From an uncultured Chloroflexia bacterium (GTDB lineage Bacteria > Chloroflexota > Limnocylindria > Limnocylindrales > CSP1-4), in contig CAVYBU010000030.1 in the NCBI GenBank assembly GCA_963766735.1, positions 32,001 through 96,000 on the forward strand: a stretch of 64,000 bases of DNA, read 5' to 3'. The notes under the pieces are model-generated. The model was given only the letters and a program-made list of their open reading frames with translations. It was not told the DNA's origin and ran no database searches. Shown one piece after another: positions 54,536 through 59,680 of this stretch (positions are counted from its first letter, which is position 1; each line of letters opens with the position of its first letter). Both the position numbers and the translations under genes were made by a program.

Positions 54536-54653
54536 CGGGCTCCCGGGCGCGAGCGGGTGGCGCGTGATCCCAAAACGATACTCCGGCACGCACATCGCGC
54601 GAGAGAGATGCTGCGGACGAGCGTAGGATGGTGCCCTGCCCGGAGGACATCCG

Positions 54654-55487
54654 ATGACCACGCCCGATCCGGCCGATCCCGTCCGCGACGACTCGCCGAC
54701 CACCCCCGTCGACCCGCCGCCGATCCCGCCCGTGACTCCCTCCCAGCCCCCGACCAACGCCTCGCCGCCAGCCGGCGCGGCCCCGTGGGACGTTCCCGCC
54801 CAGACTTCGGCGCCGCCCTCCTGGGCCGCAAGCTCCGGCCCAACCCAGCAGACGCAACCGCAGCCGCCCCCGCATCCGCATCCGCAGTCGCCCCCGCAGA
54901 CGCAGATGCAGCCGCCCCCGCAGACGCAGACGCAGCCGGGTCTCGTGGCCGGCATCGTGCTGGTCGTGATCGGCGTCGTCGTCCTGCTGATCCGCTTGGT
55001 GGACACGACCCTGGGATCGAGCTCGTGGCCGCTCTGGATCATCGTCCCGGGCCTCGTGATGCTCATCGGCTCGCTCGCAATTCCGCCCCGTGGCGGCCTG
55101 GGTCTCGCCATCCCCGGCACGATCCTCGCCATGGTCGGCGGCATCCTCTGGGTCCAGGACGCATACGGCCTGTACGGGACGTGGGCCTACGCGTGGGCGC
55201 TCGTCGCCCCGACGGCACCCGGCCTCGCGATGCTCGTCTACGGCCTCGCCCGGGGCGACCGCGATCTGGCCGCCGACGGCTTCCGGACCACGCTCGTGGG
55301 CCTTGGCCTGTTCCTCGGGTTCGGGTTGTTCTTCGAGGGCGTGGTCGGCATCTCGGGGCACCGGATCGCGAACCTCGATGAGGTGCTCCCGTACGTCGTG
55401 ATCGGCTTCGGGGCGCTGCTCGTGGTGGCCTCGCTGTTCACCGGCCGGCGCAACCGCCGCGATCCGGGCGGCACCGGCGGCGCCTGA
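54654..55487 (+). CDS. Membrane protein with Pro/Gln-rich N-terminus (LiaF/LiaI-like TM region)
   Basis: P/Q repeat, then about 6 TM helices (GIVLVVIGVVVLL...WPLWIIVPG); TAGGAT -10 and GGAGG RBS. Confidence 0.75.
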   Translation: MTTPDPADPVRDDSPTTPVDPPPIPPVTPSQPPTNASPPAGAAPWDVPAQTSAPPSWAASSGPTQQTQPQPPPHPHPQSPPQTQMQPPPQTQTQPGLVAGIVLVVIGVVVLLIRLVDTTLGSSSWPLWIIVPGLVMLIGSLAIPPRGGLGLAIPGTILAMVGGILWVQDAYGLYGTWAYAWALVAPTAPGLAMLVYGLARGDRDLAADGFRTTLVGLGLFLGFGLFFEGVVGISGHRIANLDEVLPYVVIGFGALLVVASLFTGRRNRRDPGGTGGA

Positions 55488-55490
55488 TCG

Positions 55491-56708
55491 CTACTCGAGC
55501 TCCAGGATCTCGTACCGGATCTCGCCGCCCGGGGTCACGATCGTCACGGCGTCCCCGACGCGCCGGCCCATCAGGGCCGCGCCGACCGGCGAGATGCTCG
55601 AGATCCGTCCCTCGCGGGAGTTCGCCTCCGCGGAGCTGACGACCTGCATGACGGACTCGTCACCATCCACCTCCACGCGGACGCGCGACCCGAGCCCGAC
55701 CACGGCACCGCGCTCTGCAGGCGCGACGACGACCGCGATCTTGAGCTTGGCCTCGAGCGCCTTGATGCGTCCTTCCAGGAACCCCTGTTCCTCGCGGGCC
55801 GCGTGGTACTCCGCGTTCTCCTTGAGATCTCCGTGCTCGCGCGCGGTGGCGATCCGCTTGATCACGCCCGGCCGTTGTGCATGCAGCTCAGCCAGCTCCG
55901 CCTCGAGCCTCTCCATGCCCTCCGGCGACAGGATGATCGGCTCGTGGACCTTCCGGGGCGACCCCTGGGCGGCATAGGCGGCGGCCGAGGCGATCCGGCC
56001 GGTGCCTCTGCCGGGCGCCGGACGGCGGCCGCGCTTCGCCTCGTCGCGGGCGCCATCGGCCTCGGCGGGCGGCAGGTCCACGATCCGGGTGACGGGCGGC
56101 GGCTCCGGGACCTTGGCCTCCGGGATCAGCGCGTTGGTGATGCCCGTCTCCTTGCGGGCACCCGTCTCTGCCCGCAGCACTCCCCAGGGCAGCACCGGGT
56201 CGGGTGCGTGCAGCGCAGCACGCTCGGCCGCAGGCACCCAGGCGGCGAAGGCATCCAGCAGCCCGTCCTCGTACTCCTCGGGCGCATCGGTCGCGGCCCA
56301 CCAGATCCGCAGGTCACCGAGGTTCCGCAGGAAGTGGAGCCACAGCCCGGACCACGCGGGCTTCCGGTCGCCCGGGACGGTCTTGATGATGCCGGCGATC
56401 CGCCCGGACACCGATCCGGTCGAGGACCCGATGAAGATCACCTGCTGGGACGGCAGCCAGAACCGGTTCAGGCGCAGCTGGAGGTCCCGCGATACCGGTC
56501 GCTCGCCATCCAGCCGGAGGTCCGGCACCCGCTCCAGCCACTTGCCGATCAGCGAGAGGTCCAGCGGCGGCGACGGCAGGGGGGCCTTGAGCTCCACCAC
56601 GAACACGCCGGGCGCCTGGTGCCGGACCTGGCGGCCCCACTGAGCTGGGCCGTCGGCCATCAGGCCGACCTCTCGGAGGAGGGCGGGGGCGCTGCGGTCA
56701 TCGGGCAT
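55491..56708 (-). CDS. greA: Transcription elongation factor GreA fused to an N-terminal GIY-YIG-like domain
   Basis: C-terminal GreA (HGDLKENAEYHAA, ISSISPVGAALMG) preceded in frame by about 250 aa (PGVFVV...VIFIGS...R...E..LLDAF). Confidence 0.85.
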   Translation of the reverse strand: MPDDRSAPALLREVGLMADGPAQWGRQVRHQAPGVFVVELKAPLPSPPLDLSLIGKWLERVPDLRLDGERPVSRDLQLRLNRFWLPSQQVIFIGSSTGSVSGRIAGIIKTVPGDRKPAWSGLWLHFLRNLGDLRIWWAATDAPEEYEDGLLDAFAAWVPAAERAALHAPDPVLPWGVLRAETGARKETGITNALIPEAKVPEPPPVTRIVDLPPAEADGARDEAKRGRRPAPGRGTGRIASAAAYAAQGSPRKVHEPIILSPEGMERLEAELAELHAQRPGVIKRIATAREHGDLKENAEYHAAREEQGFLEGRIKALEAKLKIAVVVAPAERGAVVGLGSRVRVEVDGDESVMQVVSSAEANSREGRISSISPVGAALMGRRVGDAVTIVTPGGEIRYEILELE

Positions 56709-56790: not shown

Positions 56791-58290
56791 ATGCCGAACA
56801 CACCGCAAGAGCGCGAGCCGGACCCCACGGGGGCCCCGGTCGGGCGACGACGCTGGCCACGGCTCGCCGTCGTCGGCCTGGTGGCGGTGTTTGCGTTCAC
56901 CGTGGCCGTCGCGGGAGGCGGGATCGCGGGCGGAGGGCCCGGCGCGCCGGCCGACGCGGCTCCATCCGCTGCCACCTCTCCGCTCCCCATCGATACTGCC
57001 TCGCCCCCGGTCGCACCGGCCGGACCAACTGCGCCGCCCCCGACCTCGCCTCCGTCCGCCACGCCGGCACCGACCGCCGGGGCGTCGGCCTCTCCCGCCC
57101 CAGGACCAGCCCAGGTCGCGGACGCGCTTGCAGCACGGCTGGACGCCCGTCTGGCGCAGCTCCGCAAGAGCTCGGCCATCCCCGGGGTCTCGGTCGCGAT
57201 CGCCTGGGATGACGGGCGCCTCTGGCTCGGTGCCGCCGGCATGGCTGACATCGCGGCCAAGGAGCCGGTGACGATCGACACGGCCTTCGCGCTGGCCTCG
57301 GTGTCCAAGACCCTGACCGCCGCAGTGGTGCTGCAGCTGGTGGGGGAGGGCTACCTGGCGCTCGACCAGCCGGTGGCATCACTCCTGCCGGCGTACGAGC
57401 TGGATCCACGGATCACCGTCCGGATGCTGCTCGACCACACCAGTGGCCTGCCGGACTACTTCCTGAACCCGAAGATCGAGAAGCCGCTGCGGGCCGAGCC
57501 AGACGACGCCTGGACGCCGGAACGAGCGTGGACCTACGTCCGTACCAAGCGCCCCGTCCCGGGAACGGTGTGGAGCTACTCCAACACGAACTACATGCTG
57601 TTGGGCGAGGTTGTGGAGGCCGTGACCGGGAGGACGATCGCGCTCGAGGTGCGGACCCGCCTGCTGGATCCGTTGGGACTGCAGAGCTCGTGGTACCAGG
57701 TCGTGGAGGAGTCGCGGGCGGAGGGCGCGACGGGATACCGGCGCGTGGCGAAGGACGGCGGCGGCTCCCGGTACGTCCGGGTGGCCCCGCCGAGCGACGT
57801 CATGCCGTTCCGGTCCGTGGTGACGGCGGCGGGCGGAGCGGGCTCGATCGCGGCGACCGCCGTGGACGCTGCTCGCTGGATGGGCGCCTTCGCCCGGGGC
57901 GAGGTCCTGCCTGCCGCCGTCCAGGCGGCGATGGTGGCGGACGCGGAGCTGACGCAGGCGATGGCGGCGGGCGTCGGATACGGGCTGGGGATCAGGGTCT
58001 TGTCGCTCGACGGCCGCCGCGCGCTGGGACACTCGGGCCGGTTCCTGGGGTTCAGGAGCGTGGTGGCGTACGTGCCTGAGGCGGGTGTCTCGATCGCGGT
58101 CCTGACCAACCAGGGCAGCTACGACCCGGCGAAGATCGCCACCAGGCTCCTGAAGGTCGCGGCGCCCCGCGCGGACATCACGCCGCCCCCGCCCTTCACG
58201 CCCTCGCCGTCGTCGTCGGCAGGACCGGGTGCATCGGCGCCCGCATCTGCATCGCCGTCCGGCTCCTTCTCACCCGCCTCGCCGGGCTAG
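56791..58290 (+). CDS. Serine hydrolase (class C beta-lactamase/D-Ala-D-Ala carboxypeptidase-like)
   Basis: SVSK (SxxK), LLDHTSG, YSN and HSG motifs; N-terminal TM and Pro-rich linker. Confidence 0.9.
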   Translation: MPNTPQEREPDPTGAPVGRRRWPRLAVVGLVAVFAFTVAVAGGGIAGGGPGAPADAAPSAATSPLPIDTASPPVAPAGPTAPPPTSPPSATPAPTAGASASPAPGPAQVADALAARLDARLAQLRKSSAIPGVSVAIAWDDGRLWLGAAGMADIAAKEPVTIDTAFALASVSKTLTAAVVLQLVGEGYLALDQPVASLLPAYELDPRITVRMLLDHTSGLPDYFLNPKIEKPLRAEPDDAWTPERAWTYVRTKRPVPGTVWSYSNTNYMLLGEVVEAVTGRTIALEVRTRLLDPLGLQSSWYQVVEESRAEGATGYRRVAKDGGGSRYVRVAPPSDVMPFRSVVTAAGGAGSIAATAVDAARWMGAFARGEVLPAAVQAAMVADAELTQAMAAGVGYGLGIRVLSLDGRRALGHSGRFLGFRSVVAYVPEAGVSIAVLTNQGSYDPAKIATRLLKVAAPRADITPPPPFTPSPSSSAGPGASAPASASPSGSFSPASPG

Positions 58291-58417: not shown

Positions 58418-59680
58418 CTAGGAGCGGCGCCGGCCACCGCCCGAGCTGGAGCCGGCTGGGCGACCTCGCCCGCCGCCACCGGACGACGAGCCGCCGGTCC
58501 CGCGCGGCGCGCGCAGCGGTTGCGCCTCCGCGTCACGACGCGGCACGAAGCCGTCGGCGACCTCCCAGGGGATCGCGGTCTGGAGCAGGCGCTGCACGCC
58601 GCGCAGCAGGTCCGCCTCGTCGATCGTGACCAGGCTGATCGCGTCGCCCGTGGCCCCGGCCCGGCCCGTGCGGCCGATGCGATGCACGTAGTCCTCCGGG
58701 TTCCACGGCAGCTCGTAGTTCACGACGTGGGGGAGGTCCTCGATATCCAGCCCGCGAGCGGCGACGTCCGTCGCGACCAGGACCCGGATCTCACCCGCCT
58801 TGAACGCCTCGAGCGCCTTCGTCCGGTCGGACTGCGCGCGGTCGGAGTGGATGGCCGTGGCAGGGACGCCATGGCGGTCGAGCCACGAGGCCAGGCGAGA
58901 GGCGGCCAGCTTCGTGCGGGTGAAGACAAGCACCTGGCGCCAGTCGCCCTCGATGATCAGGTGGGCGAGCAGCTCCTCCTTGCGGTCGCGGTCGACCGGG
59001 TAGACCAGCTGGCGGACGGCCTCGGCGGCGGTTCCGTGGCGGGAGACCTCGATGGTCTCGGGGTTCGTGAGGATCGAGCCCGCGAGGCGCTTGATCTCGT
59101 CCGAGAACGTGGCCGAGAACAGCAGGTTCTGCTTGCGGTTGGGCAGCAGGTCCAGGATCCGGCGGATGTCGGGCATGAACCCCATGTCCAGCATCCGGTC
59201 CCCCTCGTCCAGCACGAGGATCTCGACCTGGGTCAGGTTCGCGGCGCGCTGGCCGACCAGGTCCAGGAGGCGGCCCGGCGTGGCAACGAGGATCTCGATG
59301 CCCGCGAGCAGCTCCTTGATCTGCGGGTCGAGCGGGACTCCGCCGTACACCACGGAGGCGCGGAGCGGGATCTTGCGGCCATAGGTCCTGATGGCCTCGG
59401 AGACCTGGACGGCCAGCTCCCGCGTGGGCGTCAGGACGAGACAGCGGACGGGGTGACGCGCGGGCGAGAACGACGTGTTCGCGTACGGGCGAAGGCGGTC
59501 GAGGATCGGCAGCGTGAACGCGGCCGTCTTGCCGGTGCCGGTCTGGGCGGCGGCGAGGACGTCCCTCCCGGCCAGGATCAGGGGGATCGCCCGTTCCTGG
59601 ACGGGCGTCGGCTCCTCGTAGCCTTCCTCGGTCACGGTCTGAAGGAGGTCGGCTGAGAGCCCCAGCTCTTCGAAGCGCAA
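58418..59680 (-). CDS. DEAD-box RNA helicase (RhlE-like)
   Basis: Q motif, AQTGTGKT, PTRELA, DEGD, SAT and HRIGRTGR; TTG start after GGAG. Confidence 0.94.
   Translation of the reverse strand: MRFEELGLSADLLQTVTEEGYEEPTPVQERAIPLILAGRDVLAAAQTGTGKTAAFTLPILDRLRPYANTSFSPARHPVRCLVLTPTRELAVQVSEAIRTYGRKIPLRASVVYGGVPLDPQIKELLAGIEILVATPGRLLDLVGQRAANLTQVEILVLDEGDRMLDMGFMPDIRRILDLLPNRKQNLLFSATFSDEIKRLAGSILTNPETIEVSRHGTAAEAVRQLVYPVDRDRKEELLAHLIIEGDWRQVLVFTRTKLAASRLASWLDRHGVPATAIHSDRAQSDRTKALEAFKAGEIRVLVATDVAARGLDIEDLPHVVNYELPWNPEDYVHRIGRTGRAGATGDAISLVTIDEADLLRGVQRLLQTAIPWEVADGFVPRRDAEAQPLRAPRGTGGSSSGGGGRGRPAGSSSGGGRRRS

Follow-up and report, generated by a model that had tools for sequence, protein, structure and literature searches.

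The stretch of DNA analysed here (the window) comprises 64,000 nucleotides of contig CAVYBU010000030.1 from the assembly GCA_963766735.1 of an uncultured Chloroflexia bacterium. This study concerns a single gene on its reverse strand, located at 55491..56708 (-), in which a GreA-type transcript cleavage factor stands behind an additional N-terminal domain. The open frame consists of 405 codons and a stop codon (55491-55493). The translation is divided into an N-terminal domain (N-domain, residues 1-195), a linker (residues 196-255), and a complete GreA with an intact acidic tip (residues 256-405). The first-pass annotation described the protein as GreA fused to a degenerate GIY-YIG nuclease-like domain. 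The strings that it quoted were located in the 405-residue translation: PGVFVV (33-38), WLPSQQVIFIGS (84-95), LRIWWA (133-138), EEYEDGLLDAF (144-154), and GDLKENAEY (293-301).

The database's own gene call (P0002) is 389 residues long, begins at Met17, and omits residues 1-16. The same start at Met17 was called for 16 of the 120 listed relatives (window 56661-56708). Among 32 aligned relatives, which include free-standing relatives of the N-domain, L10 and L16 are conserved in at least 90%. In the AlphaFold2 (AF2) model, residues 7-13, which lie within the stretch left out of the public gene call, form a helix. A start at 56708 is supported because residues 1-16 are conserved in distant relatives and carry this helix, and the conserved residues upstream of Met17 indicate that the Met17 calls would be 16 codons short. 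The promoter and terminator scan yielded nothing usable.

The C-terminal part of the protein contains both GreA domains. The coiled-coil domain (residues 256-330, 55719..55943 (-)) matched the Pfam family GreA_GreB_N (PF03449) at residues 258-327, with an E-value of 1.1e-26 and a score of 93.2 bits against a cut-off of 24.5. The globular domain (residues 331-405, 55494..55718 (-)) matched the GreA_GreB C-terminal family (PF01272) at residues 336-404 (E 1.6e-19, 70.1 bits, cut-off 26.9), and its strands are confident in the AF2 model. When the whole protein was scanned against Pfam at E up to 1, only these two Gre domains were found and residues 1-255 were empty. The protein passed the NCBIfam GreA models NF001263 (149.7 bits, cut-off 145) and TIGR01462 (148.4 bits, cut-off 139), and was below the cut-offs of three other NCBIfam GreA equivalog models. 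The coiled-coil tip of Gre factors carries two acidic residues, D41 and E44 in E. coli numbering. The tip GDLKENAEY (293-301, 55806-55832) was also seen in E. coli GreA (1grj), to which the family profile aligned with an E-value of 1.7e-28. The coiled-coil helices span residues 262-291 and 299-324 in the full-length AF2 model. With the Pfam and NCBIfam cut-offs passed and the tip present, the GreA half is intact, as had been proposed.

A long frame of this kind may be an artefact, either because two adjacent genes were joined by an assembly or sequencing error, or because a long upstream frame of high-GC DNA was taken for a gene. The frame is open upstream to 57308 (605 residues), and long spurious frames do occur here. 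However, both GreA domains were found behind the same N-domain in all 120 of the best database relatives, which come from many assemblies, are 73-100% identical, and are 389-410 residues long. The one-frame architecture was also found in 21 genomes of the family and 31 records of named genomes. At the protein level, residues 1-195 are conserved and their fold is confident, and the alignment has no conserved start codon at the GreA boundary. We consider an artefact to be next to impossible. Since the relatives encode the same fusion in one frame, it is not a sequencing error, and the possibility that they would encode the two parts separately was contradicted. The fusion is, as judged from its relatives, genuine and old. 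A DNA contig of a public run spans the linker with one mismatch (X1 record 1, 55878-56219), and may share the source sample of the window.

Residues 1-250 were searched against 1.84 billion cluster representatives. The results showed 732 matches at E <= 0.001 and 471 at E <= 1e-10. In a Pfam scan of the representatives, both Gre domains were present in 19 of the 19 proteins of 397-478 residues and in none of those of about 200 residues. The distribution was then counted in 401 genomes of the phylum Chloroflexota. The N-domain was present in all 23 other genomes of the window's own family. Elsewhere, none of the 4 genomes of a sister family with small genomes carried it; it was found in one of 16 genomes from another family of the class and in 3 of 25 from one further family, where the matches were weak and partial. 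The lone match in that other family of the class (L007, G293:C5:21907-22503) has a catalytically intact N-domain, and the tail behind it, about 125 residues long, is a different one without a Pfam match. The N-domain and GreA share one frame in 21 of 24 family genomes, the window genome included. Two of the remaining genomes, from one genus, pair the N-domain with a different C-terminal domain, and in the third the locus is cut by a contig end. Where the sources name them, the organisms of the family are Candidatus Limnocylindrales, an order of Chloroflexota, and one cluster member carries the name Candidatus Dormibacteraeota. One family genome has a second N-domain copy (L033, G253:C1:673292-673813) interrupted by an in-frame TGA, which is probably a decaying duplicate.

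A second, stand-alone greA was also sought, and a short one (155-residue class) was found on contig 4 of the same genome; it shares 42% identity with the fusion's Gre part. At least two GreA_N matches were detected in 32 of 41 family genomes. The eight with one match are mostly incomplete and include the genus without the fusion. At least two GreA_N matches were also detected in 28 of 60 sampled genomes of other Chloroflexota, a tally that counts one genome flagged as unpublished (G038), from which no conclusion is drawn. Gre paralogues are therefore widespread in the phylum and older than the fusion. A tree of 97 Gre domains was constructed by a quick maximum-likelihood run of IQ-TREE, with SH-aLRT support and midpoint rooting only; matches covering more than 120 query residues were taken, and L178, from a genome flagged as unpublished, was left out. 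The 51 fused domains and L073, whose frame is broken by an assembly gap, formed one clade of 52 (SH-aLRT 97). The 17 canonical GreAs of the family formed a separate clade (94), next to those of the sister family. The simplest reading is that a single fusion event would have occurred, in the second Gre paralogue.

The N-domain (residues 1-195, 56124..56708 (-)) was assigned to the GIY-YIG fold by the AF2 model, structure matches, and hhalign, and corresponds to no Pfam or NCBIfam family. The model, based on an 81-sequence alignment, had a predicted local distance difference test score (pLDDT) of 97.0 and a predicted template modelling score (pTM) of 0.91. When the model was aligned with 48,161 representative chains, 12 had a Z-score of at least 2, and the top seven were all GIY-YIG proteins. 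These were T4 EndoII (Z 7.4, 107 residues aligned, 2.9 Å), the UvrC N-domain (6.4, 80 of 89 residues, 2.2 Å), a plant glutaredoxin (Grx) N-domain (5.9), I-TevI (5.6), R.Eco29kI (5.0), and PD-T4-3 and Hpy188I (3.9 each). The entry titles of the plant glutaredoxin N-domain and PD-T4-3 are silent on this point, and we take both to belong to the GIY-YIG fold class. A repeat structure comparison agreed on GIY-YIG. Foldseek found nothing in the Protein Data Bank (PDB) at E <= 0.001; its ten best rows were all R.Eco29kI and weak (best E 0.075, template modelling score 0.32).

Because the structure Z-scores were in a middling range, independent support was sought with hhalign. The family alignment matched 23 UvrC N-domains from this genome and its relatives with a probability of 90.9% (E 1.2e-6, 65 columns), in which F92, R103, and E147 were paired with UvrC's Tyr (of YVG), Arg, and Glu, respectively. 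The 81 family members gave nine sub-threshold matches to four Pfam families named as GIY-YIG (PF20815 in five members, PF01541 in two, PF10544 in one, and PF19239 in one; best E 0.003). The window protein itself matched no Pfam model of the GIY-YIG clan, above or below the cut-off. When PDB chains were searched with the N-domain sequence, the only match was at chance level (E 1.6), and a profile search against the same chains gave only Gre-family chains, from a query alignment that included Gre columns. The family consensus, PGVYVVEL ... VLYIG.T..SL..R ... LRVWWA.T.APEEYED.LL ... LPFANL, has the elements in the order GIY, YIG, Arg, Glu, and Asn. About 50 residues are inserted between strand 1 (GVF, 34-36) and strand 2 (FIG, 92-94). 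With structure matches of Z 3.9-7.4 and the hhalign probability of 90.9%, the GIY-YIG fold first suspected from the motifs, an alpha/beta fold whose three-stranded sheet bears them, was confirmed for the modelled domain by the agreement of several weak lines.

Six columns that are near-invariant in the free-standing relatives were compared in the hidden Markov model (HMM) alignment: Y36, Y92, R103, H118, E147, and N177 in window numbering. The six codons lie within 56178..56603 (-). In the window protein they encode F36 (56601-56603), F92 (56433-56435), R103 (56400-56402), A118 (56355-56357), E147 (56268-56270), and V177 (56178-56180), that is F, F, R, A, E, V in place of the Y, Y, R, H, E, N of the free-standing relatives. 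Both motif tyrosines are thus replaced by phenylalanine, as had been noted. The losses of the family His and Asn (A118 and V177) come in addition to what that annotation reported. The Gly of YIG (G94), the Arg after YIG (R103), and the metal-binding Glu (E147) are kept. From the motif order, with no superposition, we infer that column 177 is equivalent to the canonical Asn. H118, 15 residues after the Arg, may differ in origin from the His of other GIY-YIG enzymes.

The count was made on 50%-identity representatives with a complete domain, after 87 incomplete ones had been dropped. All six residues were intact in 17 of 19 free-standing proteins of about 200 residues, in 11 of 26 representatives with other or cut tails, and in 1 of 22 GreA-fused representatives. 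Among the close relatives of the window protein, the number was 0 of 121. Of the 19 free-standing and 22 fused representatives, the GIY Tyr was present in 18 and 8, the YIG Tyr in 18 and 14, and the Asn in 18 and 15, respectively.

These data bear on the proposal that GreA delivers an active nuclease to stalled or backtracked RNA polymerase, where it would cut DNA or RNA. The first-pass annotation also raised a possible link between transcript cleavage and damage or R-loop sensing. The fold and the retention of R103 and E147 agree with the delivery of a nuclease, and the six residues are all present in some of the fused relatives (12 of 31 loci, in a biased set). In some GIY-YIG enzymes, for example I-TevI, a linker connects the nuclease domain to a targeting domain; a catalytic domain, a long linker, and a targeting domain make up a layout typical of such enzymes, and the fusion resembles it. 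However, the window protein has F36, F92, A118, and V177 where Y, Y, H, and N stand in 17 of 19 free-standing proteins, the full set is missing from all 121 of its close relatives, and a Tyr-to-Phe change in the first motif of R.Eco29kI was deposited as an "inactive variant" (title of 3nic). The isoelectric point (pI) of the domain is 6.3, compared with a median of 9.2 in free-standing domains, so the basic charge is also lost. With four of six residues replaced, the N-domain of the window protein is most likely no nuclease, and the delivery of a nuclease is not supported for this protein. We regard it as very unlikely in this organism.

The free-standing relatives of about 200 residues occur in records named Firmicutes/Bacillota, Bacteroidota, Planctomycetota, Proteobacteria, Acidobacteria, and others. 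Where named, they are called "hypothetical protein", and 0 of the 120 listed had a precomputed Pfam domain. The neighbours were scanned at 14 free-standing loci. Two of the genes (L060, 5920-6609; L062, 5989-6609) lie in a prophage between the terminase large subunit and portal genes, and L060 abuts the terminase gene. This position is typical of homing endonuclease genes. Integrases adjoin two others (L057 and L124), and an IS66 transposase adjoins L091. Defence-type neighbours were AbiH/AbiC/RnlAB (L107), a WYL regulator with a DUF4011 helicase-nuclease (L087), HsdM/YhcG (L112), and a HEPN-MNT pair (L117). In PHROGs, weak matches to an endonuclease family were found (E 0.003-0.006). The window protein and nine relatives were unmatched in PADLOC (2023 library), which may not hold such a system. 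By its gene content, the setting of the free-standing genes is that of homing-type or defence nucleases.

A second architecture joins the same GIY-YIG-type domain and linker to a C-terminal domain of about 75 residues instead of GreA. It was found at L081 (5917-7014), L097 (5920-7023), L085 (5890-6861), L008, L016, L017, L128, and L132, and the genome G205 carries both architectures. The C-terminal domain follows the pattern ...LQRLAC / IACRR ... LRELLKAGVIEG ... RW.I, had no match in Pfam or PADLOC, and all Atlas scores were below 0.9. Wherever the frame holds the whole GIY-YIG-type domain, all six active-site residues are intact.

The setting of the free-standing genes leads to another explanation, namely that the fusion monitors RNA polymerase as part of conflict or defence. 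The Gre part would dock on a phage-hijacked polymerase, and the N-domain would act as effector or sensor. The prophage position and the integrase, IS66, AbiH/AbiC/RnlAB, DUF4011, HsdM/YhcG, and HEPN-MNT neighbours of the free-standing relatives fit this idea. The accessible text of Kaur et al. 2021 (PMC8195603) describes TPR-GreA/B-C-PIN proteins with variable N-terminal effectors, predicted to act on hijacked RNA polymerase, and presents fusions of the GreA/B C-domain to nucleases as counter-invader systems. In the portion available of a preprint on Agp/Bab (bioRxiv 10.1101/2024.11.07.622273), one TPR-GreA/B-C-PIN representative protects against phage T5, for which it requires its Gre C-domain. 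As far as these texts describe them, such proteins share with the window protein an RNA-polymerase-docking Gre domain joined to a nuclease-type domain, and N-terminal modules from the repertoire of conflict systems. They contain the Gre C-domain only, together with TPR and PIN, and the effector varies. The window protein, in contrast, has a full GreA with coiled coil and tip, is fixed and vertically inherited, and showed no TPR repeats and no PIN domain in Pfam at E up to 1.

Other observations also speak against a defence role. The gene is kept vertically in every sampled family genome, with one origin and a conserved chromosomal neighbourhood. No integrase, restriction, or abortive-infection family was present among the five window neighbours scanned, PADLOC gave no match in a 2023 library that may lack such a system, and the catalytic residues have decayed. 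On balance, a defence protein appears improbable, though it deserves some weight.

The fused N-domain differs from the free-standing one in more than its active site. The 19 free-standing domains had a median pI of 9.2, the 22 fused domains one of 6.2, and the window domain a pI of 6.3. Ten residues, R12, D19, P21, E39, R134, W136, T140, E145, Y146, and D148, are characteristic of the fused forms, being present in at least 85% of 53 fused sequences and in at most 25% of 52 free-standing ones, in a set that is partly biased by retrieval. Judging from their positions on strand 1, strand 3, and the helix of E147, several of them would surround the old active site. Across fused representatives, the identity to the window protein was 49% for the N-domain, 57% and 46% for the Gre domains, and 30% for the linker. 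Within the genus, the ratio of nonsynonymous to synonymous substitution rates (dN/dS) was 0.23-0.35 for the N-domain and 0.17-0.26 for the GreA half (NG86, three pairs with dS of about 0.8; more distant pairs were saturated).

It could be argued that the N-domain is a passenger without function, left behind by a mobile nuclease, and that the protein is simply a second GreA. The loss of catalytic residues in several different patterns across the fused lineages is what a passenger would be expected to show. A passenger is nevertheless hard to reconcile with a dN/dS of 0.23-0.35, with an N-domain as conserved as the GreA C-domain across the family, with ten or more residues newly invariant in fused forms only, and with a confident model. 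Of the 24 family genomes, 21 also keep the domain together with GreA, and two more keep it with the different C-terminal domain. We therefore think that a passenger is quite unlikely. These rates and identities indicate that the N-domain is under purifying selection, and is remodelled rather than decaying.

The linker (residues 196-255, 55944..56123 (-)) is rich in Pro, Ala, and Arg, basic, and predicted to be disordered. It contains 10 Pro, 12 Ala, and 11 Lys plus Arg, and has a pI of 10.4. The full-length AF2 model consists of two confident domains with a pTM of 0.56. The linker has a pLDDT below 50 at residues 218-228 and 230-254, and a fixed contact between the domains was not seen. A short linear motif, IVDLPPAEADG (residues 209-219, 56052..56084 (-)), stands at a fixed distance behind the N-domain. 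A pattern of this type was present, 12-15 residues behind the domain, in 7 of the 22 fused representatives, in 7 of the 31 fused loci, and in 117 of 121 close relatives, as well as in two proteins of the second architecture, compared with 3 of 4400 shuffled linkers used as a control. When Gre factors bind RNA polymerase, the Gre N-terminus is at the mouth of the secondary channel. An N-terminal extension is therefore sterically plausible, and the extra domain would be left outside on a leash.

Upstream of the fusion gene and in the same direction lies a DEAD-box RNA helicase gene (58418..59680 (-), Pfam DEAD and Helicase_C). The gene for a serine hydrolase of the beta-lactamase family (56791..58290 (+), PF00144, E 1.3e-70) is between the two. 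In tblastn searches of flanks up to 6 kb, 26 of the 31 fused loci had a DEAD-box gene upstream in the same orientation, eight of them with the two genes directly adjacent. The next most common neighbours were the serine hydrolase (12 of 31) and one unnamed frame (9 of 31). The recurrence of the DEAD-box gene points to a possible functional link with the fusion. No DEAD-box gene was detected within 1.5 kb of short Gre genes elsewhere in the phylum (0 of 75 loci), a result that is uninformative for the fused loci.

The helicase frame is open to 59914, about 78 codons upstream of the start of the conserved core (LRFEELGL), so that its assigned start is tentative, and it ends in a Gly/Ser/Arg-rich tail. 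On the other side of the fusion gene, the window has a low-complexity stretch on both strands at about 54650-55000. Its plus strand encodes the Pro/Gln/Thr-rich N-terminus of a LiaF-like membrane protein (54654..55487), and the opposite strand holds Cys/Gly repeats in an over-long frame upstream of an ABC ATPase gene.

Compared with canonical GreA (E. coli, 1grj), the fusion has in common both Pfam domains, the acidic tip, and scores above NCBIfam GreA cut-offs. It differs by 255 extra N-terminal residues, by its separate clade, and by an identity of 42% to the GreA of its own genome. The statement of the first-pass annotation that GreA is normally a stand-alone factor holds with a qualifier, as NCBIfam already contains models for GreA proteins with long N-terminal extensions. 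NF004969 ("transcript cleavage factor/unknown domain fusion protein", 718 positions) and NF011309 (906 positions) likewise have a C-terminal Gre behind a large N-terminal region; we assume that these proteins belong to chlamydiae and spirochaetes. The window protein scored 40.7 bits against a cut-off of 697 for NF004969 and 85.1 against 714 for NF011309, and only the Gre part matched. With the GIY-YIG nucleases (UvrC 1ycz, T4 EndoII 2wsh, I-TevI 1ln0, R.Eco29kI 3mx4, and Hpy188I 3oqg) the N-domain shares the fold and the motif order. It differs from them by the insert of about 50 residues between GIY and YIG, by extra N-terminal elements, and by the replacement of four of the six residues.

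HelD, whose N-domain enters the secondary channel of RNA polymerase, likewise joins a secondary-channel-type (Gre-like N-terminal) domain to a second module. Its domain order and partner differ, and the two are likened here by description only, as far as the available text gives it. The papers on TPR-GreA/B-C-PIN proteins mean that the idea of Gre joined to a nuclease-type domain is already in print. The literature search, whose scope left subscription journals largely outside, gave no text pairing "GreA" with "GIY-YIG" or "GIY-YIG" with "secondary channel". In the available part of a 2015 review of secondary-channel factors (PMC4598747), the terms "fused", "fusion", and "additional domain" were absent. 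For the GreA and GIY-YIG architecture itself, no description was found in the literature searched.

Because the motif tyrosines, the family His, the Asn, and the basic charge are lost, and a new set of invariant residues is present, the N-domain is read as a pseudo-nuclease module. In this study, we believed, with a probability of roughly 60%, that the gene encodes a cleavage-competent Gre paralogue carrying a neofunctionalised pseudo-nuclease module. The product would be a second, lineage-specific Gre factor beside the canonical GreA. By analogy with canonical GreA, its C-terminal 150 residues would bind the rim of the RNA polymerase secondary channel, and the Gre half would stimulate the cleavage of backtracked RNA. 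The N-domain would hang on a flexible, basic linker of about 60 residues outside the channel mouth. It would be descended from free-standing nucleases of prophages and defence islands through a single fusion event. After the fusion, catalytic residues and basic charge would have been lost, and new invariant residues would have been gained near the former active site. The pseudo-nuclease may then serve the Gre factor as a binding or regulatory module. Candidate partners are the excised or extruded RNA 3' end, nearby DNA, the surface of RNA polymerase, and the DEAD-box helicase.

Several observations weigh against this interpretation of a Gre paralogue with a pseudo-nuclease module. All structure Z-scores are below 8, a range that can reflect a common arrangement of elements. 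Among 80 loci from named genomes, all six residues are kept in 12 of the 31 fused ones, a share that is biased upward because the peptide patterns used for retrieval, taken from a four-sequence alignment, contain the His. By comparison of these residues, the set shows that a clade of fused proteins with a putatively intact site exists, and cleavage activity may have been retained in the organisms that carry them. The near-neutral charge speaks against a strong binding of nucleic acids and names no partner. The helicase linkage could be an inherited gene order within one bacterial order. RNA-library contigs of relatives (90-95% alike) map to both gene halves, which is compatible with expression and no proof of transcription.

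In addition, R103 and E147 are kept, and the new acidic residues E39, E145, and D148 around E147 leave room for a re-wired site. It is conceivable, as a tentative idea to which we give a small chance, that the fused domain is re-wired and not dead. E39, R134, W136, E145, Y146, and D148 around E147 would then form a new catalytic or ligand site at the mouth of the secondary channel, which would act with the co-inherited DEAD-box helicase as a lineage-specific rescue of stalled transcription complexes. If this is true, the site would capture or degrade the RNA 3' fragment freed by Gre-stimulated cleavage, or would sense a nucleotide.

Secondary-channel factors are a small and well-studied set, in which nearly all Gre factors have two domains. 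Here, a whole family of bacteria, abundant in sediment and water metagenomes by run labels, keeps a second Gre factor with a third domain that was probably taken from a mobile nuclease family and then rebuilt. The analysis also defines a GIY-YIG subfamily of several hundred clusters that is unnamed in Pfam, NCBIfam, PHROGs, and PADLOC. The fused N-domain would clearly illustrate the conversion of a nuclease fold to a pseudo-enzyme under selection, and the lineages that keep the catalytic residues are the place to seek a true polymerase-tethered nuclease. Overall, the family may provide a natural test case of how a tethered module alters the function of a Gre factor.

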